From contig JAHJQJ010000083.1 in assembly GCA_018819325.1 (NCBI GenBank), positions 1,067 to 65,066 of the forward strand: 64,000 bases of DNA, in the 5' to 3' direction. The notes below the pieces were generated by a model. The model was not told the origin of the DNA, ran no database searches, and worked only from the letters and a program-made list of their open reading frames with translations. Positions 24,125-54,814 of the stretch are shown here, piece by piece. The translations under genes were made by a program, and so were the position numbers. The DNA comes from Patescibacteria group bacterium. Lineage in GTDB: Bacteria > Patescibacteriota > Microgenomatia > UBA1400 > MFAQ01. Numbering within the stretch: position 1 is the first letter of the stretch; every line of letters begins with the position of its first letter.

Positions 24125-24355
24125 TTAAGGGATGCTTATTATTAACCATAATCCTAGCATAGCTATAATAAAATATTCTAGGGCGATTTTTGGATGAAGT
24201 GATTTTTCTCTTTTGTGATGCCATAATCCCCAGATAAAGTAAAGTAGGGTAAAACCAATGGTGAGAAACTTGATGTATTGGTGGCTAAAACTGGTGAGTA
24301 ACACCAAAGAAAGATAGGTTACAACTAGAAACAAAAGGGCAATGTAATCAATCAT
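24125..24355 (-). CDS. Small integral membrane protein
   Basis: 76 aa with two TM helices. Confidence 0.3.
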   Translation of the reverse strand: MIDYIALLFLVVTYLSLVLLTSFSHQYIKFLTIGFTLLYFIWGLWHHKREKSLHPKIALEYFIIAMLGLWLIISIP

Positions 24356-25194
24356 AGAACTATTCCGTGTTTAATAATGATGGCCACAACCAAGATGGCG
24401 ATGAAAAATGTGGTATGGGCCCAACTTTTACCAGAAATTCTAACTAATTTTTTTCTAAAGACAAAGAACCAGTCGAGACTTAGAGTAACCAGTAGGAGGA
24501 TAATAAATGACAAGGAGATAATTTTAGACATGGTGAAAGAGGAAATGGCGGTGTTTAAGTTGTTGGAAATGTCTTGAGTGGCATAAGCCTTACTGACGAA
24601 CTCTGATGATCCCAAGATGGACGTTTGTTCTGATGATGAAGAACCAAACATTTGAACTACTAATGTCGTTTCCTTTCCGTTAATTGTGCCATTTACTACG
24701 GCGACTCCAATATTTTCAAATCTTGAGTCTAGGATATTTTTCTTATGAGTAGGTGAGGCCATCCAGGCAGAGACCACTTCTGCAGAATTTTCAAAATCTC
24801 TGGCTAGATTTTCACCTGCGTGCTTGTATTGGTAATCTGCTTGGGAAATGAAGTACCAAGGTTCTGTACCGCTGGGTGAAGCGTGTGACCAGTAGTTGCT
24901 AGCAAACATATCTGAGGCTTTGGCTAAGGCGGCTTGGTTTAGTTTGTTGCTGGTGGTAAGTGATTTCTGGTCATTTTGTAGACGTTGGTTGTTGGTTAGG
25001 ATGATTATTTTTTCTGGATCGATGTTGGTGGCAAATCCTAATATCTTTGGTTGTAGCACTGATAACATGCTAATAACTGACTGAGCCATGATTAAGACGC
25101 CAAGCAGGGTTAGTAGTGAGTTAGTATGGAGAATTTTTGGTTTGTGATTGTTCTTATGGTGTGGAACAAACAAACGATAGGTGGTGGACAGCAT
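24352..25194 (-). CDS. CAP/SCP/PR-1 domain protein with flanking TM segments
   Basis: HAGENLA...SPTHKKNILD...NIGVAV CAP-domain motifs. Confidence 0.55.
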   Translation of the reverse strand: MLSTTYRLFVPHHKNNHKPKILHTNSLLTLLGVLIMAQSVISMLSVLQPKILGFATNIDPEKIIILTNNQRLQNDQKSLTTSNKLNQAALAKASDMFASNYWSHASPSGTEPWYFISQADYQYKHAGENLARDFENSAEVVSAWMASPTHKKNILDSRFENIGVAVVNGTINGKETTLVVQMFGSSSSEQTSILGSSEFVSKAYATQDISNNLNTAISSFTMSKIISLSFIILLLVTLSLDWFFVFRKKLVRISGKSWAHTTFFIAILVVAIIIKHGIVL

Positions 25195-25206
25195 GAGTTT
25201 ATTATG

Positions 25207-26445
25207 TCAAATTTTACGCCGTCTGGAAAGGAGATAAAATAGATATGAAAACGAGATAAATATAGACAAAATCAGCATCCAAGTTTTGGGTTTTTCTGTG
25301 GTGGTTTTACCAAGGACTTCCTTAACTTCAGCCACCCCGGGGGAGTCCTTCACTGTGTTACGGCCACCCGCCGGGGAGACTTCCGTTGGTTGCCATGAGT
25401 AAGGTGAACTAAAAGCGGAATCGGCCGAGTTGACCAAGGTAGTTAAATCTGTCAAGGGATCGCTTGCATCAGATGTATCGTCTGATGAGGTTTCGGAGGT
25501 GGTGGTTGTGGATGTTGTGGAAGAAATGTTGTCGAAGGTAACTGGCCTGATTGTTGTGGTCCATTCTCCAGCATTATCTTTAGTTTTTACCTGCAAATAA
25601 TATTGACCGTTTGAGTAATTGTTTGTATTTATCTGACAGGAAATTGAGATAGATGTAGTAGAGTAAATTGTTGCCTGTAGGCAGGTAATAACTAGATTTT
25701 GATTTTCGTCTAGTAAGTTTAACTGGTATTCTGTGATGCCAAAGTCGTCCGTGGCTGAAGCACTGAAGGTTATCTCACCTTTAAGTACCTGATTTTCGTT
25801 TGGAGCACTGATCGTGCTTACTGGAGGAGAGTTGGTTAGTGTGTTGTAGTAGTCTATGTCTAGTTTAATCAGATCTATAATGGATGAGAGGTTAGCATAG
25901 CCGTCGTCACCGTAAATCGAAAGTCTAGTTAATAGATTGTTTAAACTAGTGGCGTTTAAGTAACTTGCTGGCAATGAGACTTGTGAAGTGCTGTAATTAT
26001 TTGGTGTTGCTGGCCAAAGATTGGTAGATAAAACTTCCCAGGTTGAACCATTATCCTTGGAGATTTCTAGTTTAATATCGTAGTTTAACCCCTTTGAGCC
26101 TTGAACTTCGTTTACTTGATGAGAAATTATGAGATTTGAACTTAAAATAGTATCTGTTGATAAAAGATTAGGATCTTCAAAATCAAACATTAAATATCGG
26201 TCTGGGGTAAAGTATATCTGTGGCCAGGCTCCGTTTGCAAAAAGACCCGTATGGTCTTTGATTTGATAGCCTTGGTTGTCTTGAGTGTTTAAGTTGGACA
26301 ACTCTTGATCCGAAAGGCTACAGGTGTAGATGGAGTTGCAAAAATTACCGTCGCTAGCTTGGTCGGTAACGATTGATAAAGAAAACGACTTGGCACTTAT
26401 AGTGGTGGCAAGAGGAAATAACGCTACCACAAGACAGGAAGCCAC
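25207..26445 (-). CDS. Cell-surface protein (signal peptide, Ser/Thr-rich linker, C-terminal TM anchor) with an R4 in-frame insertion
   Basis: GTG start; ...TTSTTTTSETSSDDTSD...; C-terminal KTWMLILSIFISFSYLFYLLSRRRKI. Confidence 0.45.
   Translation of the reverse strand: MASCLVVALFPLATTISAKSFSLSIVTDQASDGNFCNSIYTCSLSDQELSNLNTQDNQGYQIKDHTGLFANGAWPQIYFTPDRYLMFDFEDPNLLSTDTILSSNLIISHQVNEVQGSKGLNYDIKLEISKDNGSTWEVLSTNLWPATPNNYSTSQVSLPASYLNATSLNNLLTRLSIYGDDGYANLSSIIDLIKLDIDYYNTLTNSPPVSTISAPNENQVLKGEITFSASATDDFGITEYQLNLLDENQNLVITCLQATIYSTTSISISCQINTNNYSNGQYYLQVKTKDNAGEWTTTIRPVTFDNISSTTSTTTTSETSSDDTSDASDPLTDLTTLVNSADSAFSSPYSWQPTEVSPAGGRNTVKDSPGVAEVKEVLGKTTTEKPKTWMLILSIFISFSYLFYLLSRRRKI
25325..25385. 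repeat. R4 GC-rich insertion, third copy (encodes ...VSPAGGRNTVKDSPGVAEV...)
   Basis: CAGCCACCCCGGGGGAG...GGCCACCCGCCGGGGAGA. Confidence 0.65.
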
Positions 26446-26518: not shown

Positions 26519-26650
26519 AGTCTTTTTAGTTGCCCGGCGATGATCTATTTTCGCATTCAGTCGCCCGAATACTATCGTCAACGCTGACCTGTTTCACTTC
26601 TGAGTTCGAAATGGGATCAGGTGGGGCCAGATCGCTTTGATCACCGGACA
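26519..26650 (-). rRNA. rrf: 5S rRNA
   Basis: The reverse complement contains CCCACCTGATCCCATTTCGAACTCAGAAGTGAAAC, the universal 5S loop B/C region, and helix I forms between its ends. Confidence 0.75.
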
Positions 26651-27005
26651 GATAAGGAAACCTTGATTTACTTATCTGCACAGTGATAAAGATTTATTTT
26701 AAGGTTCACTTACCCTCTAAAAAGTGAATAGATTAGTATAAGTAGATCACTAATAATTTATCTACTTTTCGACCATTAGTAAGGGTCGGCTAAATACATT
26801 GCTGCACTTACACCTCCCTCCTATCAACGTAGTAATCTCCTACGGGTCTTTCAGTCGCCCGAAGGCGACTATGGATTTCTCATCTTGGGAACGGCTTCCC
26901 GCTTAGATGCATTCAGCGGTTATCACGTACCAATGTAGCTACCCAGCAGTGCTCTTGACAGAAACAACTGGTTCACTAGGGATTGGCTCATCTCGGTCCT
27001 CTCGT

Positions 27006-27309
27006 CATGTACTCCTCTGTTACCAGAGGCATAGACTATACCTTCATCCTCCTAAAAATCTTAGGATAGGATGTTTGCCGTATTATAAGTGTGTATATTT
27101 ATCCATCAAAGATGGAGGAACACTTATCTTCACCTTGAACATTACTTCAAGGATTCAGTCGTTACAGGGATTATCTTATTTTAAAACATGATAATCTTCC
27201 CTCGGTATTGTCCTCTAAAGCCCTGGGACCATGGCTATAATTATAGAGGATTTCACCGATTTGGACAAATTTTTCTTTCTCCACATTACTGTGGAATGTA
27301 GCATTTTTT
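27006..27309 (-). ncRNA. Putative ORF-less group I intron (~304 nt) splitting the sarcin-ricin loop (E. coli ~2655)
   Basis: Removing it restores CTCTAGT|ACGAGAGGACC. The 5' exon ends in U and the intron ends in G; a P1 helix UAGU/GCUA is possible; it shares GGGAAGAU, GACUGA and AUAGUC segments with the second intron. Confidence 0.6.
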
Positions 27310-27344
27310 ACTAGAGACAAACTCCCTCAAAAATCCAACGCTGG

Positions 27345-27390
<46 letters not shown>

Positions 27391-27461
27391 ACGTAGCGCT
27401 TTAATGGGCGAACAGACCAACCCTTGGGAGCTTCTTCACCCCCAGGATGCGCTGAGCCGAC

Positions 27462-27727
27462 CAAATGGCTCCATCTATTACTAGTGGTTTGGACTATATC
27501 TTTCAAAATTAATTACCTTTTCTTATCCTTTTGGTAACTAAATTGAGTTGGCGTGTGTACAGTTCTCCAATGAAGAACTATCTCAATTCCGATTAAATCG
27601 GAATATCAGTCTCTACGGGGATCTCGATCATGGATCGGATCTTCCCACGGGGTTAACCTTTGGTTGTTCATTTCCAAGGCATTCTCCGTTATTAGCCAAC
27701 TTTATCCTCGACATTCGTTCTTGGTTT
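27462..27727 (-). ncRNA. Putative ORF-less group I intron (~266 nt) after the equivalent of E. coli U2504 in the peptidyl-transferase ring
   Basis: Removing it restores ACCTCGAT|GTCGGCTCA. The 5' exon ends in U and the intron ends in G; a P1 helix CCUCGAU/GUCGAGG with a U-G pair at the splice site is read directly from the sequence. Confidence 0.65.
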
Positions 27728-29755
27728 ATCGAGGTAGCGAACTGCGCCGTCGCTATGGACGCTCAGGCGCAACTACTCTGTTATCCCTGGCGTAGCTTTT
27801 ATCCGTTAGGCCCGGAGCTTCCCACGAAGCTCACGAGGATCACTTAGACCTACTTTCGTATCTGCTTGACTTGTTTGTCTCACAGTTAAGCACCCATATA
27901 CCTATATGCTTACACTCCGATTTCCATCCGGAGCTCAGGGTACCTTTGTACGCTTGCGTTACTCTTTAGCAAGCAACCTCCCCAGTTAAACTACCTTCCA
28001 GACAGTGTCCCCGGTGTTGTTTGCAAACACCTTAGGTAAGAAATACATAAAGAAAAGAGAGGTATTCCACTGACGGGCTGAATATAAATATTCAGCCCTC
28101 CCTCCTATTCTCGACAGTTACAATACATATTTCAGTGCCAAGTAGTAGTAAAGCTGCACAGGGTCTTTTTGTCCTGCTGCCAGTAGGCCGCATCTTCACA
28201 GCCATTTCAAATTCGCCGAGCTCTTTCTCAAGACAGTTGAAGGGTGGTTAAACCATTCGTGCACGTCACCAATTAAGTGACAAGGAATTTCGCTACCTTT
28301 GGACTCTTATAGTTAAAGCCGCCCTTCACCGGGGCTTCAATCACAGGCTCAATATCCGAAGACATATCACCCGCTCATTTAACCTTCCGGCAGTGGGCAG
28401 GTCGCAGCCCGTATACTTAAGCTTTCGCTTTGGCACAGACCTGTGTTTTTGATAAACAGTCCCCCCTCAATCATTTGCTGTGGCCCGAATCGTGCAAGCA
28501 CGTTCCGGGCAGGGCATCTCGCATAGCTTACGCCCAGTTAATTTGCCTAGTTCCTTAAGAAAGATTCGCTCGTCCACCTTAGTCTACTCGACCTACCCAC
28601 CTGTGTCGGTTTTCGGTACGGATTGTATAGTTTCTATTTGCGACACTTTTCTCGGAAACTGAAGTCATCCAACTCTCTATTGATTACTCTCAAGATTGTA
28701 TTTACAGTTCGTGTTAACGCTCTAGCGGATTTGCCTACTAGAACTGCCTTACTGCTTAAACAGTGCATGTTCAACGCACTGCTCGGATTATCCAACTTCG
28801 TCATGCCCCAACTTAAAACGAAACTACACAAGGACCGGAATATTAACCGGTAATCCATCGGCTACGCCTTTTGGCCTCACCTTAGGGTCGCCTAACCCAA
28901 TGCTGACAAACATGGCGTTGGAAACCTTGGGTATTCGGTGGGGAAGATTCTCACTTCCCTCTCGCTACTCATGCCGACATTCTCACTTCTTGCCGCTCCA
29001 ACAAGCCTTACAGCTTGCCTTCAATGCTACAAGAACGCTCCCCTACCACTTTATATAAATATAAAATTCTTAAGTTCGGTAGTATATTTTAGCCTCGTTA
29101 TATCTTCGGTCACATATCTCTCGGCTAGTGAGCTGTTACGCTTTCTTTCAAGGATGGCTGCTTCTAAGCCGACCTCCTAGGTGTTTGAGAGATGATGTAT
29201 CCTTTTCCACTTAATATACATTTAGAGACCTTACTTGAAGATCTGGGATGTTTCCCTTTCGCCTCTGGAGCTTAGCCCCCAGACACTGAGTCCCTTGCAA
29301 TAAAACGGGGTATTCTTAGTTTGATTGGAAGTAAAGGTTTTACCCCTCAAATCCATTCAGTGCTTTACCCCCCCGTTTCTTAACAAAAGCCTACGCCTAG
29401 ACGTATTTCGGGGAGAACCAGCTATTTCCGAGTTCGTTTGGCATATTACCTCTAACCACAAGTCATCCGAGCCATTTGCGACTGACATCGGTGCGGGCCT
29501 CCACTAAAACTTAATTTAGCTTCACCCTGCTCATGGTTAGCTCACTCGGTTTCGGGTTTATACCACACAACTTAGCGCCCTGTTAGGACTTGGTTTCCCT
29601 TCGACTCCACTGCGGAGCAGCTTAATCTTGCTGTATGGAATAACTCGTCGGCTCATTCTTCAATAGGCACGCCATCATCCTCGATAAAATCGGGACTCTG
29701 GCTGCTTGTTAGCAATCAGTTTCAGGTACTTTTAAACGGGCTACCAACCCTGCTA

Positions 29756-29794
<39 letters not shown>

Positions 29795-30384
29795 ATAAGA
29801 GTAATTAGTCTTGGACCGTGGTCGGCCCGGATTCAATCTGGAGTTTGCCGTCTCCAGACCTACTTAGGAGTCTGACTATTGTTTTGTTGACAGTTTTGCG
29901 TACAAGACTTTCACTTTCTATGGTCGTCTATTCCAAAACGTTCTGCTACCTTATAAAACAAATATTGTTAGTCCTACAACCCCTGATATAAATACCAGGT
30001 TTAGACTCATCCCTTTTCGCTCGTCGCTTACTAAGGGACTCTCGTTCGATTTCTTTTCCTCTGGGTACTAAGATATTTCAGTTCCCCAGGTTCCCACTCC
30101 GACATAAAGTCGAAAGTACTCCGGTATAAACCGGAGTGGGTTACCCCATTCGGACACCGTCGGATCATAGGTTCTTGCCACCTACCCGACGACTTTCGCA
30201 GGCTTGAAACGTCCTTCATCGGCTCTTATTGCCAAGGCATCCACTGATTGCGTTATGAGTACATAAATTATTATTTGATGCGATCTACTTTTCTAATCTA
30301 TTCACTTTTTAATGAGCAAGTGCTCTGATTTATATAGAGCTAACGTTTTTACCTAAAATTAAGTAAGAAGGCTAGATCTACTGT

Positions 30385-30457
30385 GGAACGTAATATCGCT
30401 TTGCGATAAACGTTCCTAACCACGTTGAACGTAATATTGCCCTGCAATAAACGTTCT
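30385..30457 (-). promoter_or_regulatory. Two tandem covarying hairpins (GGAACGTAATATCGCTTTGCGATAAACGTTCC and TGAACGTAATATTGCCCTGCAATAAACGTTCT) in the tRNA-Ala/23S spacer
   Basis: Compensatory change ATCGC/GCGAT versus ATTGC/GCAAT; candidate rRNA processing stems. Confidence 0.4.
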
Positions 30458-30461
30458 TGCG

Positions 30462-30537
30462 TGGTGGACCGTGTCGGGCTCGAACCGACCACCTCATCGT
30501 TGCAAACGATGTGCTCTACCAGATGAGCTAACGGCCC
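30462..30537 (-). tRNA. tRNA-Ala (TGC)
   Basis: The reverse complement GGGCCGTTAGCTCATCTGGTAGAGCACATCGTTTGCAACGATGAGGTGGTCGGTTCGAGCCCGACACGGTCCACCA has a G3:U70 pair, a TGC anticodon and an encoded CCA. Confidence 0.85.
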
Positions 30538-31176: not shown

Positions 31177-32004
31177 CTAATAGGGGTTGTTGCGAAAGAA
31201 CAAAACAGAGCCTGACAAAGTAAGTAACCCTAGGCCAACAAGAGTAAGATTGACACCAAGTTTGGATTTGACGGAAGCAGACTGAGAACTTGTCGATGCA
31301 CTAACGGTGGAGTCTTGAAAAAATACGTTGTAAGGGCTGGAGTCTGTGGCGGCGGATAACACTTCTGCCGCGCCTAACTTTTCCTCTGGCAAAACTTGGG
31401 CGGGTGAAGGGGTAGAAGTGGGAATAGAAGTTGTTTTAGGAGTGGGTGCTGAAGTTGGAATGGAGGTGGGTTTTTTAGTGGGTACAGAGGTTGGCTCATC
31501 TGTTGGGGCTGGTTCTTCAGTTGGAGTTGGGGTAGGAGTTGGACAAGGGTCCTGAGAAGCTGAGTTTGTGGCATCTCTTGTCTGCGAAATGAACCTTACA
31601 AAATTTCCCGTTCCATCAGGAGACCTTCCTACTGATTGCCCTTCATTAGGAATACAAACATCGGCCTGATCATCATCACCATAACTTACTTGATCTACTA
31701 GAGTGAAGTCGTCTTCTTTGAAAAGTTTTATCGTGTCCCCGTCCTTATTGAGACGATTTTTAGCATCGAATACAAAAAACTTGGAAGTTGATGGACCAAT
31801 AGAGACTCCCGAAGATATTGTGTTTACCTTAGTTGAAGCTGTGTCTCTTAATATCCAACCAGATATATCCGTGTCCTCGTCTGAATAGAGTTCAACCCAA
31901 TCACCGGAACTTTCCCATGAGCTAAACTCGTTAATGACTATTTGGGCGTTAATAACTTTAGGAAAGGCAAGAAATATGGCAAGAACGGCGAGCAGAGCCG
32001 ACAT
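31177..32004 (-). CDS. Lamin-tail-domain (LTD) secreted protein with a Pro/Thr-rich linker and C-terminal TM anchor
   Basis: IVINEFSSWESSGDWVELYSDEDTDISGWIL is the LTD signature. Confidence 0.6.
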   Translation of the reverse strand: MSALLAVLAIFLAFPKVINAQIVINEFSSWESSGDWVELYSDEDTDISGWILRDTASTKVNTISSGVSIGPSTSKFFVFDAKNRLNKDGDTIKLFKEDDFTLVDQVSYGDDDQADVCIPNEGQSVGRSPDGTGNFVRFISQTRDATNSASQDPCPTPTPTPTEEPAPTDEPTSVPTKKPTSIPTSAPTPKTTSIPTSTPSPAQVLPEEKLGAAEVLSAATDSSPYNVFFQDSTVSASTSSQSASVKSKLGVNLTLVGLGLLTLSGSVLFFRNNPY

Positions 32005-32067: not shown

Positions 32068-33243
32068 TTAGAAGTAGTTTACGTGGAGGTAGTAGGTGTC
32101 GATATCGGAATCGGCGTGATCAACACGAACGTATTTTAGAGAACAACCGGCAGAGCCTGTATAACCACCTCTGTATAACTTGCCTGATTTAACCGCCATT
32201 ACTGAAGTGGAACCACCAGAGATGTCTATACCGTTATGAAATGAATAAATACTACTAACCCAGGTATTTTGAATTGCCCAAGTAGAACCATAGCCCTGGT
32301 TAAAATAAATGGGTGATGAAAGTGGCCAATCCCAACTACCACTAGGGTTGAAGGGGTCGCCACCAGAGTTATTGTAATAATCAACGGACTTTAAATAATC
32401 AAATGGGTTTTTTACTAGAGAGTTATCACCAATCATAAAATGAAGATGAGTCCCTGACGAGTTACAAGACGAACCAGTGATAACGTTGGCAATGACGTCA
32501 CCTTGGTTTATCTCACCTACTTCTTCTTCTACACCTTTACCGGCGATGATTGCTTCTATGGCTTCGAGTTCGGCTCTGGCACTGGCTAGTAGGGCTTGGA
32601 ATTTTTGTTCGTCGTTTTTGGTGATAACCAAAAGATCTTGCTTTTGAGCTTTTTGGCCACCTAGAGCTACTCTTTGACCGACCAATTTGGTTTTTAAGTC
32701 TTCTACTTCTTGCTGTTTATTTTCTTTGGTGAGCTTTTGTTGATCAAAATCGAGTCTGGCTTTTTCTAGCTCTTGGAGAATCAATCTATCTCTGGTCTTT
32801 ACCGAATTAAAGTACTTAAGTTTGATGATTAGTTGACCAAACGAGTCTGATGAGAAAAATAGCCTAAGTGGATTTAGATCTCTTTGTTTATAACTTTCTC
32901 TAACGCGGGCGACGTAGGTTACGGATAGTTCATCTAAAGATTTATTTAAGTCTACCAAAATTGTAGAAAGGAGACTAATTTCTTGTTCCAAACCATCAAT
33001 TTGGGCTTGAGTTTGATTTATCTGGCCTTGAGCCAGATTAATTTTGGAGTTTAAAACGATAATGGCGGAGTTTAGAGTGTATTGTTGCCCCTTGGATTCG
33101 TTGATTTTTTCATTGCAGTTTTTTATGTAATCGATTAATTGACTAGGATCGCTTGGGGGTGTGCCATCACATTCTAAAGCTATAGCGGGGATTGAGAGGG
33201 TGACGGTGAGGCTAATTAGAAAAAGGACTAGCCATTTTTTCAT
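32068..33243 (-). CDS. EnvC-like coiled-coil protein with an M23 (LytM) peptidase-related domain
   Basis: Long N-terminal coiled coil; ...GSSCNSSGTHLHFMIGDN (an M23 C-terminal HxH-type segment) lies before ...FHNGIDISGGSTSVMAVKSGKLY (an M23 N-terminal-type segment); sits next to ftsX and ftsE. Confidence 0.55.
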   Translation of the reverse strand: MKKWLVLFLISLTVTLSIPAIALECDGTPPSDPSQLIDYIKNCNEKINESKGQQYTLNSAIIVLNSKINLAQGQINQTQAQIDGLEQEISLLSTILVDLNKSLDELSVTYVARVRESYKQRDLNPLRLFFSSDSFGQLIIKLKYFNSVKTRDRLILQELEKARLDFDQQKLTKENKQQEVEDLKTKLVGQRVALGGQKAQKQDLLVITKNDEQKFQALLASARAELEAIEAIIAGKGVEEEVGEINQGDVIANVITGSSCNSSGTHLHFMIGDNSLVKNPFDYLKSVDYYNNSGGDPFNPSGSWDWPLSSPIYFNQGYGSTWAIQNTWVSSIYSFHNGIDISGGSTSVMAVKSGKLYRGGYTGSAGCSLKYVRVDHADSDIDTYYLHVNYF

Positions 33244-46032: not shown

Positions 46033-47235
46033 TTACAGGAAGGGTTCTGGTTTGTATCCAACAGGCAGGACACCTAATTTAGACTCAACAAACTTGGCTC
46101 TTTTAAGATAAAGGTCTTCTTCTGCCAGATCAAGATTTAAGCTATAAAAAACAGATTTACCTTGTTTTCTTTTTTGAACCCAGCCCTGGCTGACCCCCTT
46201 TTGCAGCTGGTTATTAAATGACTGCTCTGCCATTTTGCGTTTGATTCTTTTGTGTAAATTAGTATAGGTCAAGCTTTTTTCTTTAACCAAGGGTTTTAAT
46301 ATTTTCTTTTGCCTACTGTCACTTGTGTTTTTCTCTAGAAACTGCATACGCTGGAACTCGATGCTTGTTTTGTAGACCCCTAAGATCGACATGGCTAATG
46401 CTTCTATTATGAAGCTAGAAAAAATGGTTAGGTCTTTTTGCAGAAGAGAAGAGATTAACCTTTTGTAGTACTTGGGTTTGAACTGATGGTAGTAATATGA
46501 GGTACTGTATGTGTTTTTACTGTTTAAGTTAAGAAGTCTGTACAGAATGTGTTCTGTTACTCTGCACAAGCGTTTGTTGCCGTTGCAAAAGGGGTGGAGA
46601 GCATACAGAGCGTTGTGAAATATAGCGACGTTGGTGATGGTAAAGTTGTTTTTTAACCAGTTAATGAAGTCTGTTATGTTTCTATTGAGATCTTTGGCAG
46701 GCGAAGGTTGGTAATCGCCAACTTTGATGTTGTCGTTTTTTCTTAGATGCCCAGAGTTGTATACCTCAAATTGAAAAATATGTTCTTTGAATATGTCCAT
46801 TCCGGCTGTTAACTGGGCATGGATGTCTTTTAATAAATCTACGCTTAAGTCTGCCAACTTAAATGGTTTTTGATTTAGGTTGCGGAAAGTTTTAATGATA
46901 TTGAAGTACTCTAGCTTTTCATAGTCTGTTTGAGTAAGCTCCTCTTGGTTGTTGATTTTTTGCTCAATTAAGTTCCACTGCCGGTTGTCTTTGATAAATT
47001 TATAAATATTTTGGGCCTGTACTAAGGTTAGGTTAGAGTCTTCTGCCTTGGAGATAGCAAAAGAGGCAAATAGTTCGTTTTTGGAAATCAAGTTTGCTTC
47101 TATATCTGGGTTGAGAAACTTTTTTTCGTACAAGGATAGCTCTTGATCTAAATCTTGAATTTCTTTGTTGGAAAAAGGAATCTTGCCAGGGTGGAATTGA
47201 AGCTGTGAAAGGTATTTATTGGTCTTGGTGAACAT
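46033..47235 (-). CDS. Fic/DOC family protein
   Basis: Fic motif HPFCNGNKRLCR (HPFx[DEN]GNxR); C-terminal wHTH-like region. Confidence 0.7.
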   Translation of the reverse strand: MFTKTNKYLSQLQFHPGKIPFSNKEIQDLDQELSLYEKKFLNPDIEANLISKNELFASFAISKAEDSNLTLVQAQNIYKFIKDNRQWNLIEQKINNQEELTQTDYEKLEYFNIIKTFRNLNQKPFKLADLSVDLLKDIHAQLTAGMDIFKEHIFQFEVYNSGHLRKNDNIKVGDYQPSPAKDLNRNITDFINWLKNNFTITNVAIFHNALYALHPFCNGNKRLCRVTEHILYRLLNLNSKNTYSTSYYYHQFKPKYYKRLISSLLQKDLTIFSSFIIEALAMSILGVYKTSIEFQRMQFLEKNTSDSRQKKILKPLVKEKSLTYTNLHKRIKRKMAEQSFNNQLQKGVSQGWVQKRKQGKSVFYSLNLDLAEEDLYLKRAKFVESKLGVLPVGYKPEPFL

Positions 47236-47362
47236 TGATTTTTGCTCTAATATAACTCTAGTTATTACTCTAATTTTAACTCTATTTTTACTCTAAAGTC
47301 AAGAGTGATGGCAGGCACGAAAGGACTGTCCTTTCTGTGAAGTGGTAGGTTAGACATTTACT

Positions 47363-48232
47363 TTACTTTAGCAATTTTCCAGATGCCTTTTTCTTGTGTG
47401 TTGGCAAAATATTTTCTCTGGTAACAACTTTTTGCCCCGTCTGTAATTCATAATCTCTGCGTGCTCTTTTAGCCACGGCGCCGCCCTTTTTAGCTGGAGG
47501 GACATTTTTTCTAAAACCTCTGGCTTGTTCCTTCTTAGCTATATTTGCAGTTGAAAGTTCTGCCAAGGTTGTAAACAACAATTCTGCTTCAGACATATGA
47601 TCCCGCAAATTTTCCTGTTTTATTTTCTTTAGATTTTTGTGCTGACGGGTGGTTAAATCCGTCCATTCTTTATGAATAATGTTGGTAAGTAGTGCAAATT
47701 CTTTTTCTTTTGTGACTTCGTGTTCACTCCAATAATCTGTTAGCTTGTTTCTGATTTCCTGCCCCATCATTCTTTGCTGAATCCATTTTGCGCTCCGTCC
47801 CATTCTTTGCCAATAATCACGGCTACGATTAAGCGCTTTTCCTGGGTCGTTTATTTCTTCTATTCTTTCATAGCCAACGCGAGCCAACCAAAGTTTAACT
47901 GGCTCGGCCTTGGGGCTGGGAACCGATTGAATAAGGCGCAAAATTGTTTCCACATCCGCAACGTCGGTTTTATAATACTTTCCATCGGCAGACTGCAATT
48001 TCAGTTTGTCACATTTTGTGACAGACTCATTTCCCTCTTGTTTTAAACGACTTTTAAGCGTTGTCCAGTAGCTTTGTGCCTTTTTAAAATCGGGCTGTTC
48101 AATAAGAATAGCTATAATATCAATAACCGAAAAGTGCCATTTTTCTTGTTTTTCATCCCATAGGCGACGGATTTTGTTACCCTCAAAAATTGTAATTTGT
48201 TTTTTTGGTTGTTTGGGTAGAGTTCGGGTCAT
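47363..48232 (-). CDS. DinD-like DNA-damage-inducible protein with a Bro-N/KilA-N-like N-domain
   Basis: ITIFEGNKIRRLWDEKQEKWHFSVIDIIAIL N-terminus; C-terminal part resembles DinD. Confidence 0.5.
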   Translation of the reverse strand: MTRTLPKQPKKQITIFEGNKIRRLWDEKQEKWHFSVIDIIAILIEQPDFKKAQSYWTTLKSRLKQEGNESVTKCDKLKLQSADGKYYKTDVADVETILRLIQSVPSPKAEPVKLWLARVGYERIEEINDPGKALNRSRDYWQRMGRSAKWIQQRMMGQEIRNKLTDYWSEHEVTKEKEFALLTNIIHKEWTDLTTRQHKNLKKIKQENLRDHMSEAELLFTTLAELSTANIAKKEQARGFRKNVPPAKKGGAVAKRARRDYELQTGQKVVTRENILPTHKKKASGKLLK

Positions 48233-48258
48233 GATTTAATAATGGTCTTTCTTCCCGA

Positions 48259-49317
48259 CTAAATTTTTCTATACCTACTGCTTCTGGCCTGACCAATTCT
48301 TTCTAGTAATTGGCATTTTACCAGCCTGGATAAGGCTTGTTTAATGGTTGGTTGTGGCATTTTACCCCTAAGTAAGGTGTTAATATCGGCTACGCTTAAT
48401 GTTTTGCCTTTAGAGAACAAATGATAAACTTCTAGTTGTTTCTTGGACAAAAGTTTTTCTGGCTGATCTTCTTCTATAATTTTTCGGGCTCTGTTTGCCT
48501 GCACAAGAAGAGCTTCAAGAAAATACTTAACCCACGGGGTAATATCCTGATGGTTGGTTTTATGATTTTTTTGAGTGGCTCGCAACGCCAGATAATAATC
48601 TGTTTTTGTTTCTTCAATAATTTCGTCTAAAGAAACATAGGGGATGTATTCGTAGCCGATTTTAAGAAGTAAGAGATTGGTTAGGGCGCGACTCATTCGG
48701 CCATTGCCATCTTTGAAGGGGTGGATTGCCAAAAACTCAAAAATAAAATTTGCAACAACTAAGAGTGGATGAACCTCTCCTGTTTTTAGTTGTTTATTTG
48801 TCCAGTTAAGAATGGTTTCCATTTCTGGTTTTACGAGATAGGGAGCCGTAGGTTTAAATAAGATTACCTGTTCACCCTGTTTGTTAAACATAACTACCGT
48901 ATTGGATCCGGATTTATATTTCCCCTTATGGATTTGGTCTTTTTTGGAGAAATGCAAGAGGATACTGTGAAATTGTAGAATCCAATTTTCGGATAATTTA
49001 AGTGTGCGCCAATTGTCAAAAATCCTGCCAATTAAATTAGCATAGCCCGCTACCCCTTGTTCGTCTCGACTCTTTGGAGCTTTGACTTTCAGACCGCGTA
49101 AAAAACGGGCAATTTCTTCATCTGTCATTTGCGCACCTTCAATACGGGTACTGGCGCCAGTTGAGGTAATAATGACCCATTGCTTAAGACGCCCCAAAAT
49201 TTGAGGACTTAATTTAATTCCTCCTTGCCAGAGCCCCTTAAATTCATCGATTTTACCGATTGAAGCCAAGATACTTTGAGTTAGTTTGATGCGCTGATTG
49301 AGTTGATTTTTGGACAT
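48259..49317 (-). CDS. Fic/DOC family protein
   Basis: Fic motif HPFKDGNGRMSRAL; C-terminal wHTH. Confidence 0.75.
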   Translation of the reverse strand: MSKNQLNQRIKLTQSILASIGKIDEFKGLWQGGIKLSPQILGRLKQWVIITSTGASTRIEGAQMTDEEIARFLRGLKVKAPKSRDEQGVAGYANLIGRIFDNWRTLKLSENWILQFHSILLHFSKKDQIHKGKYKSGSNTVVMFNKQGEQVILFKPTAPYLVKPEMETILNWTNKQLKTGEVHPLLVVANFIFEFLAIHPFKDGNGRMSRALTNLLLLKIGYEYIPYVSLDEIIEETKTDYYLALRATQKNHKTNHQDITPWVKYFLEALLVQANRARKIIEEDQPEKLLSKKQLEVYHLFSKGKTLSVADINTLLRGKMPQPTIKQALSRLVKCQLLERIGQARSSRYRKI

Positions 49318-49475
49318 AGGAATTGAATATAATTAACTATATTCAATAGTATACGATAGTATCTGAAAAGTCAATCTGACTCAAATGTTCCCACGTTGGC
49401 CTTTCTGTAAAGGGCTAGAGGAGAGTCCTCTAAGTACAGAAAGGACAGTCCCCTTTTTGAGTGGTGGGCAGATAT

Positions 49476-50204
49476 TTAAACTCCTGCCAGTTCTTTTTTT
49501 AGGGCAGTGGGGAGATCCTTGATAATTTGCCAAAAACTTTTTGGTAAAAATCTTTTTAACTCAAAGGCTAACTTGTCTTTTGATAATTTAGTCGTTAGCT
49601 CTAGAATTTTTTTTCTTTGCTGGTTGTCAATCTTTAACAATGGTCGAAAGTCATCTTTTCGAAGGATAAAATAGAGGTCAAAAAAATCTCTAACCTTAGA
49701 TCGGTCAAGCAGGGCGGCGACTTTTTCTGCTATTAGTAGTTTTCTGTCTAGCAAGTAAATACTATAACTTGGAAAGATGTTTGAGGCTATCAGAACGTTT
49801 TCTTTGATAAGTTTATCTTGAGGTCTAAAAGAAATCTGGTTTTGAATTTCAATTTTCTGGTTAAATAATTCAACTTCTATAACCGCTAGATGCCCGCCAG
49901 AAGTTAGTTTTGATTCTTTTAAATCGACCCCTATTCCTTGGGTGGATAATTCTATTAAAACCGTCTCTAGAATTTTTTCGTAAGTATTGGAATTTTTTTC
50001 CCCTGAAAAATCTAAATCCTCAGAAAACCTTGGAGATCCAAACGCTAATCTTAAAGCTGTGCCGCCTTTAAATAAAAAGTTTTGGCTATTTTCTTGGCTA
50101 TAAAAACTCTTTAGAAAAAGGTGCTGAACATACTCTCTTAATATATTGCTTAGGCTTGTTTCTGATTTGGTGGCATGGTTTTTTAAAAAATTTTCGTCTA
50201 TCAT
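49476..50204 (-). CDS. AbiEii/AbiGii-family nucleotidyltransferase toxin
   Basis: GGTALRLAFGSPRFSEDLDFS is the pol-beta-type NTase motif of AbiEii. Confidence 0.65.
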   Translation of the reverse strand: MIDENFLKNHATKSETSLSNILREYVQHLFLKSFYSQENSQNFLFKGGTALRLAFGSPRFSEDLDFSGEKNSNTYEKILETVLIELSTQGIGVDLKESKLTSGGHLAVIEVELFNQKIEIQNQISFRPQDKLIKENVLIASNIFPSYSIYLLDRKLLIAEKVAALLDRSKVRDFFDLYFILRKDDFRPLLKIDNQQRKKILELTTKLSKDKLAFELKRFLPKSFWQIIKDLPTALKKELAGV

Positions 50205-50806
50205 AAGCGGTGATTTAATAGTTGACTGGCAAAGGAAATCAGTTTTGGTTTAAGAAATAATTTTAAGTATTTTTTAAGCTGAACGAAGTCAAGAGTCTTT
50301 GTTTTTAATCGATCGTTGTAATTTCTTTTGCCCAGAAAGACATAGTAAAGAAAGTCGGCCACTGCTTTTTCTGGAGTAGCAATGAAAATAGTTTCTTGGG
50401 CGATAACTTTGGGAACATAGCCAGTATAAGCTGACTTTTTGATACGGCGATAATCGAAAAGTAAGTTGCCAACTTTGAACTCTCTGGTGGCTTTAGTAGT
50501 GACCGAAGAAATGGCGTAAATTGTTTCTGGTATTAATTGATAGTAAGAAAGAGCTGAGTCTAAGGAAATATAGGAAGGAGAATAGAGGTGGTTGGCAATG
50601 GAAAACTCTGATGGTGAGTTGTCTTTTAGAGCATAAATGCCCGCTTTAAGGCGGACAAAAACACCTTTTTTGACGTTGTAAGACAAAAAGGCTTGAGTGG
50701 CTCTTTGGGTAGTGTTAAACATGGCTTTTAGATCATCAGTAGTAAAGATTTTTAGATTAAGTGAAATTAGGCGGTTTTTTACTTGATGTGAATTCAGTTT
50801 CTTCAT
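50201..50806 (-). CDS. AbiEi-family antitoxin/transcriptional regulator
   Basis: ~200 aa wHTH protein immediately upstream of, and overlapping, the AbiEii gene. Confidence 0.55.
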   Translation of the reverse strand: MKKLNSHQVKNRLISLNLKIFTTDDLKAMFNTTQRATQAFLSYNVKKGVFVRLKAGIYALKDNSPSEFSIANHLYSPSYISLDSALSYYQLIPETIYAISSVTTKATREFKVGNLLFDYRRIKKSAYTGYVPKVIAQETIFIATPEKAVADFLYYVFLGKRNYNDRLKTKTLDFVQLKKYLKLFLKPKLISFASQLLNHRL

Positions 50807-50928: not shown

Positions 50929-51498
50929 ATGAAAATATATTTTACTGCCCCGCTGAAAGGAGGCGTGTCGTTTGATAAAAGATACCAACTAATTGAAAAA
51001 ACATTAGAAGGTTTGGGGCATAAAGTTTTGGCTGGTCAGGCAATTAAAAAAAGTCTAGAGAAAAAGAATTACAACAAAAAAGAATCGGTCAAGATATATA
51101 GACAACTATATAGAACACTAAAATCAGTAGAGATTGCTATTGTGGATATCTCAAACCCTAGTTTATCGGTTGGATATGAGATTTCTTTGGCGCTTGAGCT
51201 TAACAAGCCGGTGATTGCTATTCATTTTAAAAGCAGACGGTACCACCTGCTTAATTCTATACCTAATGAAAAGTTGCAAATTGTTCGCTACGACAGTAAA
51301 AACCTAAAAAGGCAGTTAGAAAAAGCGATTAAGACTGCATTAGATATGGTTGATGTTCGTTTTAACTTTTTTATTACCCCCCAACTGCTTTCATATTTAG
51401 ATTGGATTTCCGGTAAAAGACGAATTCCTAGATCTGTGTTTATTAGGGGCTTAATAGAAAATGACATGGAGAAAAACAAAGAGTATTTAGAAGATTAG
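50929..51498 (+). CDS. Nucleoside 2-deoxyribosyltransferase-like domain fused to a C-terminal ribbon-helix-helix (CopG-like) domain
   Basis: MKIYFTAPLKGG...VDISNPSLSVGYEISLALELNKPVIAI is NDT/Rcl-like; the C-terminal ...RRIPRSVFIRGLIENDM is RHH-like. Confidence 0.4.
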   Translation: MKIYFTAPLKGGVSFDKRYQLIEKTLEGLGHKVLAGQAIKKSLEKKNYNKKESVKIYRQLYRTLKSVEIAIVDISNPSLSVGYEISLALELNKPVIAIHFKSRRYHLLNSIPNEKLQIVRYDSKNLKRQLEKAIKTALDMVDVRFNFFITPQLLSYLDWISGKRRIPRSVFIRGLIENDMEKNKEYLED

Positions 51499-51689
51499 GT
51501 ATCTGTTTTACGGCTTGGCTTGACAAAGGTAGTTGTTGTATGTTTTGATGTAGTTATATATTAAATATGAGTTTATTATATATTTAATGTATATTTACTG
51601 CTAATGAACAAAATAACTGCCCAACCCACTTTGCCTATTTCAAATTTATTATTTTTGAATAATACATAAAGGAAAGGGGGTGAGAAAGA

Positions 51690-52304
51690 ATGAATGAAAA
51701 AAGAATAGCACTAGGAGTTTTAGTTTTAATAGCAGTAATTGGAGGAACATTTGCCGTTACCCGTGCCTTCTTCACCGATACTGAGACCAGCACCGGCAGT
51801 ACATTTACTGTTGGTACTTTAGACCTGGACGTTGGAGGAGCTAATGGCTCAAACGTTGAGCCCTTTGTTATTGAAAACATAGGGGATACAGGCGATATAG
51901 ATGGTTCCAAGGTTTGGACGGTTAACAATACTGGATCTTTACCTGGACGCCTTTACTTTAAGTTAGACAACGTTTTAAACTATGAAAATGGCTGTAATGA
52001 GCCTGAAGCATTAGTTGACGTAACTTGTCTAGACCCAGGAGTAGGAGAAGGTGACTTGGGTGGTGTGGTTACGATTCACGCTTACCTTGATGGAGTAGAA
52101 AAAGCTTCGTCTACCTTAGCAAGCGCAAACCAGGCCGTGATTGGTAATACATGGACGGCTTTGCCAGCGATGACTATCCCTGCAAACAGCAGTGTCCAAG
52201 TAATGTTGGACTGGTCTACTGGTGAAAATGATTATGGTAACGAGATCCAAAGTGACAGCATCACATTTGATGTTGGTTTTGATCTAGTACAGATAATCGA
52301 CTAG
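51690..52304 (+). CDS. TasA/camelysin-like secreted protein with a SipW-cognate signal peptide
   Basis: TM then RAFFTDTETSTGSTFTVGTLDLDV, the SipW-cognate motif. Confidence 0.55.
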   Translation: MNEKRIALGVLVLIAVIGGTFAVTRAFFTDTETSTGSTFTVGTLDLDVGGANGSNVEPFVIENIGDTGDIDGSKVWTVNNTGSLPGRLYFKLDNVLNYENGCNEPEALVDVTCLDPGVGEGDLGGVVTIHAYLDGVEKASSTLASANQAVIGNTWTALPAMTIPANSSVQVMLDWSTGENDYGNEIQSDSITFDVGFDLVQIID

Positions 52305-52344
52305 AACCTTTCTTGCCAACAGGGGACCATTAATATGTCCCCTG

Positions 52345-52863
52345 TTGAGTGAGAAATTAAATATGAAAAAAACACTAAATATTATTGTTGGAATATTTTC
52401 TTGGATCCTTATTGGTTCCTTTGTGGTTATATTAGGAATGACTTTACTGTCTAACTTGAATTTATTGCAGGGATATCGCTCTTTTTTGGTTCAGTCGGGG
52501 TCTATGGAGCCTTCGATTATGATTGGTGACGTAGTAATAACCACCAAGGCAAGGCAGTACCACCAAAATGACGTGGTTACTTTTAGAGACAATGACGGCA
52601 GAACGGTTACCCACAGAGTTATTGAGATTGAGAAGACGAACTACACGCCACTATTGGTTACCAAAGGAGACGCTAACGATACTAAAGACAGACATAAAAT
52701 TAATACAGATCAGGTTTTGGGTAGGGTTAGTTTGGTAATTCCAAAGCTGGGCTTTGTGATTGCTTTTTCTAGAACACCAATTGGTCTTTTGGTATTGGTA
52801 ATTATTCCGGGTGGAATCATTGCTGCTGATGAAATAAAGAACATTTTTAAGAAACGTGAATAG
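52345..52863 (+). CDS. sipW: Signal peptidase I, SipW type (S26B)
   Basis: VQSGSMEPSI catalytic Ser box and THRV His box; N- and C-terminal TM helices. Confidence 0.7.
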   Translation: MSEKLNMKKTLNIIVGIFSWILIGSFVVILGMTLLSNLNLLQGYRSFLVQSGSMEPSIMIGDVVITTKARQYHQNDVVTFRDNDGRTVTHRVIEIEKTNYTPLLVTKGDANDTKDRHKINTDQVLGRVSLVIPKLGFVIAFSRTPIGLLVLVIIPGGIIAADEIKNIFKKRE

Positions 52864-53443
52864 GAGGGTAGCTTTAAGAATAGCTTTTTTCTTTATGATG
52901 TCTATTTTGCTTTTTAGCGGTGCCACTGATGCTGATATTTCTGACAGTGAGGTGAGCACGGGCAATACTTTTACTGCCACGACTTTGGATATTACCCAAA
53001 ACCAGACTAGTAATAACCTGCCTATTTCTTCATTGTTTAATGTAACCTCATTGGTTCCTGGTGGTTTTGATATAAGGGCGATGAGAATACTGAAAGCAGG
53101 GAAGATGGATTTTAATTACCGAATAATTGCTAATAAAACAATTGGAGATGATAACTTTTGCCAATCTTTAACGCTGGTTCTTCTTCAAGACTGGCAGATT
53201 AAGTACGAGGGAGTGATGAATGACTTGGTTTTGGATGACAGGATTAACGAAAATGGGATTGACGACTGGATTATGCTGGTGAAACTTAGTAGCAATGACC
53301 AAGCTTTAGTTTTAAAGGAATGCCAATTTGACATTATCTTTAAGACCTGGAAGAATGACCCATATGAAACAAACGGGTTCTATGATGAAGAGATTATTAC
53401 CAACCGAGTCACCAGTGGTAGCTGGGCAAATAATGAAGAATAG
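52856..53443 (+). CDS. Second TasA-like protein with a SipW-cognate signal peptide
   Basis: ADISDSEVSTGNTFTATTLDI. Confidence 0.5.
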   Translation: MNRRVALRIAFFFMMSILLFSGATDADISDSEVSTGNTFTATTLDITQNQTSNNLPISSLFNVTSLVPGGFDIRAMRILKAGKMDFNYRIIANKTIGDDNFCQSLTLVLLQDWQIKYEGVMNDLVLDDRINENGIDDWIMLVKLSSNDQALVLKECQFDIIFKTWKNDPYETNGFYDEEIITNRVTSGSWANNEE

Positions 53444-53936
53444 TATCCACGCCATATTAATTGTTTGGATTGTAGTTATAGCAATGTTAGATGTTGTAAC
53501 CTCTGCTAAAAACTTACCAGGTGAAGTTAGGTTCTACACGATGGAATTAAATTCCATGGGTCCGGCTGTTCCGGCAAATAGTTTAATTCTTACTAAGCCA
53601 TATCCTAATTATCTTGTTAATGAGATTATCACTTTTGAGTTCCCCGGTAGTAAAGAAACTGTAACTCACCGGATTGTTAACTTATATGAACAAAATAATC
53701 AAACCTATTATATTACCCAAGGGGATAATAATGAGGCGGTTGACAGAAGACTTATCCCTATAGAAAATATTTTTGGTAAAGCGACTGCTGTAATTCCTTT
53801 ACTGGGGTGGTTGGTTAAGTTTGTAGACACAGAGCTGGGGCTTATATTACTGGTGGCCGTACCGGCAACCTTGGTGGTAAGAAGAGAAATTATGGTTATT
53901 AAAAGGGAGATTAAAAAAGGTATGCGTAAGGGTTAG
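53433..53936 (+). CDS. Second SipW-type signal peptidase I
   Basis: ELNSMGPAVP Ser box, THRIV His box, TM helices at both ends; start chosen at MKNSIH. Confidence 0.55.
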   Translation: MKNSIHAILIVWIVVIAMLDVVTSAKNLPGEVRFYTMELNSMGPAVPANSLILTKPYPNYLVNEIITFEFPGSKETVTHRIVNLYEQNNQTYYITQGDNNEAVDRRLIPIENIFGKATAVIPLLGWLVKFVDTELGLILLVAVPATLVVRREIMVIKREIKKGMRKG

Positions 53937-54814
53937 GCACTTATCTTAGAAATTTTCCAGATGCCTTTTTCTCTAAATGCTGGAATTGTTTGGCGCTTGG
54001 CCTTGTTGAGTAAAATAGAAGTGGATTCTTTTTCTGCCTTGGCGTACTGAGATAGTTTTATAATGGTATTACCTTTAAGGTAAGCAATTCTTTTGTGCAT
54101 TGATTCCAGTAATGCTAGGGTTAGTATTTTTTCCATAGATGTAGATTTTTGGCTATTTCGGTATTCGCCAAAGGATTTGTAGTATAGAGATTTTTCTTTA
54201 TCGCGAATAATTATGGGCGGAAAGCCAAGCTGTGTTAACTGATAGTTAATAAGTACTCGACCAATACGACCGTTTCCGTCTATAAATGGGTGGATGTTTT
54301 CAAACTCTAGATGAAACTGGGCAATTTTTTCTAGAAAATATTTTCTGTGATCGCTTGAGTACTCAACAAGGACCGACTCTATCATTCTATCTATATGTTC
54401 TGGTGCGGGTGCAATATGCATACCTACCCTGACGTACTCGTTTTTCTTTCTAAATCTGCCGGATATGTTTTCGTTGATATTTTCAATAAGCATTTTGTGC
54501 AATAGCAGAATTAGATCTTTATTAATATCTTTTACAGTTACCTTGTTTTTTATATACTCGGAAACCCTGGCTAAGTTTTTGGCTTCAAAAATCTCTATAA
54601 CAGAAACGTGACGTGAGGCTTCCATTTCCATTAAAATTTTTTCTGTTTCTGCTATGGTTAAGGTAGAACCCTCAATTGCGTTTGAGTTATAAACAGCCTC
54701 GGACAACTCTGTTTCAAATAAAATATCTAAAAGAGAGTCTTTACCCTTTTTCAAGGAGTCATAGTCTTTTTTAAGCCTGTTTATGTTTTGTCTGAGATTT
54801 TTAGTGATTGCCAT
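53933..54814 (-). CDS. Fic/DOC family protein
   Basis: Fic motif HPFIDGNGRIGR. Confidence 0.7.
   Translation of the reverse strand: MAITKNLRQNINRLKKDYDSLKKGKDSLLDILFETELSEAVYNSNAIEGSTLTIAETEKILMEMEASRHVSVIEIFEAKNLARVSEYIKNKVTVKDINKDLILLLHKMLIENINENISGRFRKKNEYVRVGMHIAPAPEHIDRMIESVLVEYSSDHRKYFLEKIAQFHLEFENIHPFIDGNGRIGRVLINYQLTQLGFPPIIIRDKEKSLYYKSFGEYRNSQKSTSMEKILTLALLESMHKRIAYLKGNTIIKLSQYAKAEKESTSILLNKAKRQTIPAFREKGIWKISKISA

Follow-up and report, generated by a model that had tools for sequence, protein, structure and literature searches.

What use does a patescibacterium have for two secreted proteins encoded side by side, each followed by a signal peptidase gene of its own? A life in attachment to other cells is generally assumed for Patescibacteria, and the arrangement in question is found at positions 51690-53936 of a 64,000-nucleotide stretch of contig JAHJQJ010000083.1 (assembly GCA_018819325.1, Patescibacteria group bacterium), which is called the window here. 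A first interpretation made from the DNA letters and their open reading frames (the sequence-only reading) had taken the four genes for a duplicated module of a TasA-like substrate and a SipW-type signal peptidase, with two back-to-back sets that might build a fibre or surface appendage. The two secreted proteins are referred to below as S1 and S2 and the two peptidases as P1 and P2, in the order S1-P1-S2-P2. Our analysis supports a single, conserved operon of Microgenomates-type Patescibacteria for a TasA-type extracellular system, most likely a fibre that forms without chaperone and usher. We put the probability of this reading at roughly 60%. The assumption of two equivalent sets did not hold, given that S1 and S2 resemble each other over approximately 49 residues only and that P1 and P2 fall into separate clades.

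Results

Gene layout of the locus

The four open reading frames (ORFs) are co-directional on the plus strand and together fill positions 51690-53936, and all motifs quoted for them in the sequence-only reading are present. S1 (51690..52304, 204 aa), a secreted TasA/camelysin-like protein and the proposed major subunit, is preceded by a purine-rich sequence resembling a ribosome-binding site, AGGAAAGGGGGTGAG (51670..51684, plus strand, as read from the sequence), which ends 5 nt before the start codon. It is followed by P1 (52363..52863, 166 aa), by the secreted protein S2 (52856..53443, 195 aa), which is the proposed minor or accessory subunit, and by P2 (53433..53936, 167 aa), the second paralogue of a SipW/SEC11-type signal peptidase. 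The GTG start of S2 and the stop codon of P1 overlap by 8 nt, the start of P2 and the stop codon of S2 by 11 nt.

The start of P1 is most likely the ATG at 52363, which is also used by public gene calls, rather than the alternative TTG at 52345, which is located inside the hairpin described below. For P2, the most likely start is the ATG at 53433, while public gene calls use the ATG at 53382 and the mechanically derived ORF begins at 53328. Public gene calls let S2 start at Met14 (182 aa; P0121; loci L081-L083), which cuts the basic n-region off its signal peptide together with some of the hydrophobic h-region. Since the orthologues keep the longer N-terminus (MNR..LRI.FFF), the start of S2 is better placed at GTG 52856. 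A scan for sigma-70 promoters around the operon, including the 190-nt AT-rich spacer 5' of S1, yielded matches that were no commoner than in shuffled sequences. This locus is found on 11 public contigs, and the closest relatives of the window in our genome scan are metagenome-assembled genomes of Shapiro-, Roizman-, Woese- and Levybacteria. Together with the intron-bearing 23S rRNA gene described below, they point to a Patescibacterium of the Microgenomates type as the host.

Two signal peptidases of different lineages

P1 carries the motifs SGSMEP, THRV and GDAN..D as well as hydrophobic segments at its N- and C-terminus, and P2 the motifs NSMGP, THRIV and GDNN..D. Both exceeded the cut-off of 51.85 bits of the archaeal signal peptidase model TIGR02228 (sigpep_I_arch), P1 with 93.9 and P2 with 75.8 bits. 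The bacterial LepB model TIGR02227 gave 35.2 bits for P1, which is under its cut-off of 47, and no match for P2, and PRK10861 was matched at E 0.1 only. P1 matched human SEC11C and SEC11A at E 2e-7 and P2 matched SEC11C at E 3e-6; the alignment of both with human SEC11A/C extends across the Ser, His and Asp motifs, corresponding to a Ser-His rather than a Ser-Lys enzyme. Judged by these profiles and alignments, P1 and P2 are of the endoplasmic reticulum (ER)/archaeal SipW/SEC11 type and not of the LepB type, in agreement with the sequence-only reading, for which ordinary LepB-type peptidases would have been a refutation. P1 (100.2 bits) and P2 (84.7 bits) fell short of the 190-bit cut-off of NF046067, the equivalog model for Bacillus SipW; they thus represent the SipW type of enzyme without being orthologous to the Bacillus protein. 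A LepB-type motif was found in none of the ORFs of the 64-kb window; as this is the part of the genome that was seen, a LepB gene may lie elsewhere in it.

P1 and P2 share 32% identity (E 3e-24). In a quick neighbour-joining tree of 108 sequences based on BLOSUM distances, a single bipartition separates 38 peptidases encoded after an S2 (class B) from 70 encoded after an S1 (class A), and the sequences share on average 40% identity inside class A and 34% inside class B, compared with 30% across the two classes. All 71 class-A (P1-type) orthologues have the catalytic Ser, His and Asp, and each of these residues is kept in 37-38 of the 40 class-B (P2-type) sequences. The residue preceding the nucleophile is Gly throughout class A, whereas it varies in class B; P2 of the window has Leu at position -2 from the nucleophile, where class A has an invariant Ser, and position 62 of P1 (numbered from the ORF starting at TTG 52345) is Asp in class A and Ser in class B. 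By sequence, P2 is thus a second peptidase lineage that diverged anciently and has an intact catalytic triad. That P2 is a pseudo-enzyme was also considered, and was rejected on account of the conservation of the triad in class B.

Two related loci encode a degenerate peptidase-like protein at the position of P2 (L064, 4458-4955; L065, 538-1035), which is devoid of the catalytic Ser and His and is followed by a longer S1-like protein of 275 aa. This arrangement is possibly a pseudo-peptidase variant of the system.

S1 and its relationship to TasA

Residues 1-26 of S1 form a signal peptide with a predicted cleavage site at TRA↓FF, the sequence reading TRA↓FFTDTETSTGSTFTVGTLDLDV. The mature N-terminus FFTDTETSTGSTFTVGTLDL aligns with the donor strand of TasA, and positions 38-46 (TF..GTLDL) coincide with TasA, with both F28 and F39 present. 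In the TasA fibre, the donor strand comprises residues 28-38, and F29, I32 and F39 are buried in neighbouring subunits (PMC9674648). The alignment of the S1 family is invariant or nearly so at A26 (position -1 of T-x-A↓), F28 (P2'), F39, G42-T43-L44, C102 and C113; F28 is conserved in at least 90% of the members, and both the T-x-A cleavage site and F..GTLDL are present and nearly invariant. LepB processes the TasA signal peptide poorly on account of an aromatic residue at P2' (PMC10269814), which provides a rationale for a dedicated peptidase.

The Pfam model PF12389 (Peptidase_M73) was matched at E <= 0.01 by 61 of 64 S1 family members. For a comparison of profiles, a TasA query was used that retrieved B. 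subtilis TasA at 99% identity, and genuine TasA/CalY proteins were profiled. The S1 family profile was aligned with them by hhalign at 96.8% probability (E 2.9e-10) over approximately 96 columns (residues 1-100), a region that includes the signal peptide, the strand after the cleavage site and the first beta-strands. The database search revealed more than 254 S1 homologues, nearly all of approximately 200 aa. NCBI lists several of them as TasA family protein, as M73 family, as SipW-dependent-type signal peptide-containing protein or as spore coat-associated protein N; a protein identical to S1 is named 'M73 family metallopeptidase [Patescibacteria group bacterium]'. Sequence comparison supports S1 as a relative of TasA and camelysin, as had been assumed from the letters alone. 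A metalloprotease function, which the name M73 implies, was rejected on account of a single His and the lack of an HExxH-type zinc motif.

The AlphaFold2 model of S1 is rich in beta-strands (mean confidence score, pLDDT, 74.9), and residues 21-41 are disordered. Its top matches in Foldseek are weak and comprise donor-strand pilins, namely the PapG pilin domain, CS17, CfaB and the Saci_0406 thread.

S2, a distinct family with a proposed accessory role

The signal peptide of S2 likewise comprises residues 1-26, with a predicted cleavage site at TDA↓D and the mature N-terminus DISDSEVSTGNTFTATTLDI in the same register as that of S1. Both substrates therefore carry the SipW-cognate N-terminal motif behind the signal peptide, and the cleavage context claimed in the sequence-only reading stands on alignment. 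Similarity between S1 and S2 amounts to 41% identity over the N-terminal 49 residues in BLASTP (E 6e-6) and to 86% probability in hhalign, confined to the first 49 residues. The shared region consists of the signal peptide and the next approximately 20 residues, which align with the TasA donor strand.

S2 had no match at E <= 1 to any model of Pfam or NCBIfam, TapA (YqxM; TIGR04087) included. A word-based search yielded 15 homologues, and an exhaustive profile search 950 cluster representatives (E <= 1e-3). Many of these relatives have a length of 300-1166 aa with the S2 module at the N-terminus. Ten long forms were scanned, and a lamin-tail (LTD) domain was detected in all ten, in two of them just under the Pfam cut-off; several of the ten also carry fn3, Big_13 or CBM96 domains. 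PF12389 was found in seven of them at E <= 0.01 and in four above its cut-off, restricted to the first ~80-110 residues. On metagenome contigs encoding long S2 forms, the order of S1-like protein, peptidase and S2 is kept. Because forms from sister lineages are equipped with lamin-tail, fn3, Ig and carbohydrate-binding domains, the S2 module has the appearance of an adhesin or anchor.

The AlphaFold2 model of S2 (pLDDT 75.1) is also rich in beta-strands, with a disordered N-terminus behind the cleavage site. Foldseek ranked the TasA fibre structure 8aur_A second (E 1.9e-4), a weak match with a TM-score of 0.33 that stands among domains of MSCRAMM (Gram-positive surface adhesin) and fimbrial adhesin proteins. 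We regard S2 as an accessory family in its own right that mimics the donor strand of S1, and it is possibly a very divergent member of the TasA superfamily.

Within the window, the lamin-tail domain is found in a secreted 275-aa protein encoded on the minus strand (31177-32004; 35.1 bits, cut-off 34.3) that has an ordinary signal peptide and adjoins an M23 peptidase (32068-33243). It could be a separate partner of the system or an unrelated surface protein.

Conservation of the operon

The pairing of substrates and peptidases was surveyed in a scan with one genome per species, which resulted in 66 loci. Hidden Markov models of the two secreted proteins, as well as P1 and P2 as query sequences, served to classify the ORFs; ORF starts were set mechanically, and the window as well as two loci fetched via homologues were included. 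The counts given here cover the window and 66 further loci, of which 65 came from the genome scan and one was reached via an S2 homologue; one duplicate is excluded. Records with an informative name belong mostly to Patescibacteria, and one is titled Limisphaerales; many TPA_asm loci bear unverified titles such as 'uncultured Gammaproteobacteria'.

The core S1-P-S2 is present in 61 of the 66 other loci, and the recurrence that the sequence-only reading had suggested looking for in related genomes was thus found. Taking the window and the other loci together, 37 show the architecture S1-P-S2-P, 17 S1-P-S2 and five S1-P-S2-S1'-P', and the rest are truncated or variant. Among the 61 loci with enough downstream sequence, including the window, S2 is followed by a P2 in 40 cases, by an extra S1' (with or without P') in six and by neither in 15. 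The four-gene order is kept in loci whose S1 is only 40-50% identical to that of the window, and the peptidase P' of the extra copies groups with class A. The operon is therefore composed of an old, conserved core triad and an ancient second peptidase lineage. Given the two clean peptidase clades and the residues that distinguish class A from class B, it did not arise by recent duplication.

A hairpin behind the S1 gene

A GC-rich stem-loop with an 11-bp stem, CAACAGGGGAC...GTCCCCTGTTG (52317..52347, plus strand), is located after the S1 stop codon. It has a minimum free energy of -18.9 kcal/mol (z = -5.0) and no U-tract. Such a structure recurs among the loci with unrelated sequences: 83% of the gaps between S1 and the peptidase gene (n=52, >=25 nt) fold with z < -3, compared with 12% of length-matched upstream controls (Mann-Whitney p = 6e-13). 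The median gaps across loci are -4 nt between P and S2 and -1.5 nt between S2 and the following P.

We infer that the hairpin is an attenuator or an element stabilizing the mRNA, which would raise the ratio of S1 to the downstream products; as it is mostly devoid of a U-tract, attenuation is a guess. Together with the overlap of the P1, S2 and P2 genes, it fits an abundant major subunit and scarce peptidases and accessory protein. In B. subtilis, TasA is abundant and TapA and SipW are scarce, which represents a similar expression layout (PMC10151520).

Genomic surroundings

Directly upstream of S1, a cytoplasmic protein of 189 aa is encoded (50929-51498, plus strand). A weak resemblance to nucleoside 2-deoxyribosyltransferase and ThsB-TIR (25.3 bits, under the cut-off) is seen in its N-terminal domain, and visual inspection of the C-terminal ~45 residues suggests a ribbon-helix-helix. 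Homologues are encoded on the same strand and at most 2.2 kb from the operon in 10 other loci of the genome scan, either upstream or downstream. In L039 and L046 the homologous gene and the stop codon of P2 share 4 nt, and another homologue lies approximately 1 kb downstream of the triad with a long S2 in L069. This protein is possibly a regulator or a fifth member of the operon.

Genes of the toxin and defence type flank the operon within 46033-50806 and 53933-54814. They encode three Fic-domain proteins (46033-47235, 48259-49317 and 53933-54814), an AbiEii/AbiEi pair (49476-50806) and a BRO-N/AbiJ-like protein (47363-48232). In the syntenic locus L001, whose S1 is 80% identical, P2 is directly followed by secA and housekeeping genes lie upstream; since the toxin and defence genes are absent there, they look like insertions. 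Further proteins of the secreted or surface type are encoded at 18463-19890 and 24352-26445: one of the GH5 cellulase family, one with a CAP/SCP domain and one with a Big_7 Ig domain. The rRNA region (26532-30537, minus strand) contains a 23S rRNA gene (26756-30266) with a group I intron (27013-27341), a 5S rRNA gene and tRNA-Ala(UGC). Introns in rRNA genes are typical of bacteria of the candidate phyla radiation (CPR).

Discussion

How could the four products act together? In the mechanism that we favour, S1 would be the abundant major subunit, exported by the Sec pathway, and P1, a dedicated peptidase of the ER/archaeal type, would remove its signal peptide at T-x-A↓[FY]-F with the aromatic residue at P2'. 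The strand set free in this way (FFTD...F..GTLDL) would then complete the beta-sandwich of the neighbouring subunit through the kind of donor-strand exchange known from Bacillus TasA; the register shared with the TasA donor strand suggests that S1 may polymerize by this route. S2 would be an accessory of low abundance that either supplies the first donor strand, as a nucleator like TapA, or serves as a cap or adaptor at an end of the fibre. The hairpin behind S1 and the overlapping genes P1, S2 and P2 would keep the major product in large excess over the minor ones. That such a fibre may serve attachment to hosts, as the sequence-only reading had suggested, is plausible.

Several observations weigh against this mechanism. 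The S1 protein of the window itself remained just below the thresholds of the two relevant models, with 21.7 bits against a gathering threshold of 22.5 for PF12389 (E 2e-4, residues 6-84) and 17.7 bits against a cut-off of 19 for TIGR04088 (cognate_SipW). Homology to TasA covers the N-terminal ~100 residues, and the C-terminal half of S1 cannot be aligned with it. Foldseek did not return TasA for the S1 model, and the TM-scores for S1 and S2 were all low (0.3-0.45). Searches of the PDB with the single sequences and family profiles of S1 and S2 gave nothing meaningful, and the hhalign comparison of S2 with TasA was weak (27% probability, E 6.5e-4). Only 7 of the 52 gaps between S1 and P have a T-run. 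P2 is tied to S2 by gene order alone, and the cleavage site of S2 does not vary with the presence of P2, as T-[DNS]-A↓D occurs whether or not a locus has this second peptidase.

The four genes could also be the product of a recent tandem duplication and encode two redundant copies of one TasA-SipW pair, as is suggested by the alternation of substrate and peptidase genes, the similar N-terminal motifs of S1 and S2 and the homology of P1 and P2. However, S1 and S2 are alignable across no more than 49 N-terminal columns, the P1- and P2-type peptidases separate cleanly in the tree of 108 sequences, and the order of the four genes persists at an S1 identity of 40-50%. Real extra copies do exist, but they take the form S1'-P' with P' in class A, and a recent duplication of the pair is therefore very improbable. 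We consider it unlikely, though not to the same degree, that S1 and S2 are secreted without forming filaments, for example as coat, matrix or wall-associated proteins or as a camelysin-like protease, and that the peptidases merely process atypical signal peptides. PF12389 is formally a metallopeptidase family (M73), the NCBI name of the protein identical to S1 agrees with this, and the N-terminal half of S1 is the part that is demonstrably TasA-like. On the other hand, S1 possesses one His and no HExxH-type motif, and the most conserved block outside the core is the donor-strand motif that it has in common with TasA. Moreover, this strand is exactly what the accessory S2 mimics, the layout of major and minor genes with an intervening hairpin is typical of fibre operons, and the structural neighbours are pilins.

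A different doubt concerns P2, which might not be dedicated to this system but be a general signal peptidase that is located here by chance, or a protein of low peptidase activity that acts in regulation or as a scaffold. A second role of this kind, independent of the peptidase activity, has been reported for Bacillus SipW. No ORF of the window contains a LepB-like motif, P2 is missing from 21 of the 61 informative loci, the cleavage motif of S2 is indifferent to its presence, conservation near the nucleophile is relaxed (variable Gly at -1; Leu at -2 in P2 of the window), and two loci harbour a degenerate copy without Ser and His. Against this, P2 abuts or overlaps S2 wherever it is present, with the median gap of -1.5 nt, its Ser, His and Asp are each retained in 37-38 of 40 sequences, and a LepB gene may be situated beyond the 64 kb. 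Taking both sides into account, we regard a P2 without a dedicated role as quite unlikely. A more far-reaching version of the fibre mechanism, in which the operon would encode the principal surface fibre of Microgenomates-type Patescibacteria other than type IV pili, is unlikely as well. The product would then be a chaperone-free donor-strand pilus with S2 as a modular tip or anchor, bare in the window and fused to lamin-tail, CBM or fn3 domains in sister lineages, which may mediate attachment to a host or a surface, and P2 would time the release of the nucleator. To our knowledge, a gating of fibre initiation by two peptidases has no counterpart in Bacillus.

Rather than two equivalent sets, the closer analogy to the favoured TasA-type fibre operon appears to be the B. 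subtilis biofilm-fibre triad tapA-sipW-tasA (accessory, peptidase, major subunit), extended by one peptidase. Both have a three-part core with an ER-type signal peptidase in the middle, a major subunit, here the proposed one, whose signal peptide resembles the SipW type and which bears ...F..GTLDL as donor-strand motif, and an accessory that resembles the major subunit at its N-terminal strand only and whose gene is coupled to that of the peptidase. TapA is TasA-like in its N-terminal donor strand alone, of low abundance and translationally coupled to sipW (PMC10151520; PMC9674648). Unlike B. subtilis, a Firmicute, the Patescibacterium has the reversed order (major subunit, peptidase, accessory) and an additional peptidase paralogue; P1 and P2 stay below the SipW equivalog cut-off, and the C-terminal half of S1 is not alignable to TasA. 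S2 is no homologue of TapA, as it has no match to TIGR04087, and the likeness would be a functional one of strand mimicry and gene coupling.

The sipW-tasA ... calY locus of B. cereus combines two secreted proteins of the TasA superfamily with a SipW-type peptidase in the absence of TapA (PMC4292775), and S2 may in a comparable way be a very divergent TasA paralogue. Its paralogues, however, are alike over their full length, whereas S1 and S2 are so over approximately 49 residues, and it has a single sipW. The bundling pili of Pyrobaculum calidifontis are donor-strand fibres of the TasA superfamily, for which a larger accessory protein with distal adhesive beta-domains has been proposed to start the assembly (PMC9245690). 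The long S2 forms with LTD, fn3 and CBM domains resemble this larger protein of the AbpA/AbpB pair, but no dedicated signal peptidase is encoded beside the archaeal operon (PMC9245690), compared with two here. With chaperone-usher and type V pili, the system would have in common the principle of donor-strand exchange and the operon logic of major and minor subunits, and proteins of these pili (PapG pilin domain, CfaB, CS17, AggA, CfaE) are the top Foldseek neighbours. Chaperone, usher and outer membrane are lacking here, and the structural likeness is not evidence of homology, because the beta-sandwich is a generic fold and the scores are weak.

TasA (PF12389) homologues in Patescibacteria have already been noted in a phyletic survey (PMC9245690), which was the only mention of TasA, camelysin or SipW in CPR bacteria or Patescibacteria that we found in open-access papers and preprints. 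The same literature yielded no paper on the operon, the S2 family, its fusions to adhesin domains or the second peptidase clade. The type of system is thus known, while the four-gene layout has not been described before in the open-access literature. The practical value of the finding is moderate, given that standard annotation already recognizes the components and that TasA homologues in the phylum have been published.

We know of hardly any surface structures of Patescibacteria apart from type IV pili. The locus described here is a concrete and widely conserved candidate for such a structure, namely a fibre system of the TasA type that is encoded together with the enzymes for its processing. 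With S2, it moreover brings to light a previously unnamed accessory family of approximately 950 cluster representatives that carries adhesin-like domains in other lineages. The logic of accessory protein, peptidase and major subunit known from the Bacillus tapA-sipW-tasA operon would accordingly extend far beyond the Firmicutes, and one may ask why a second paralogue of SipW has been retained in many lineages.

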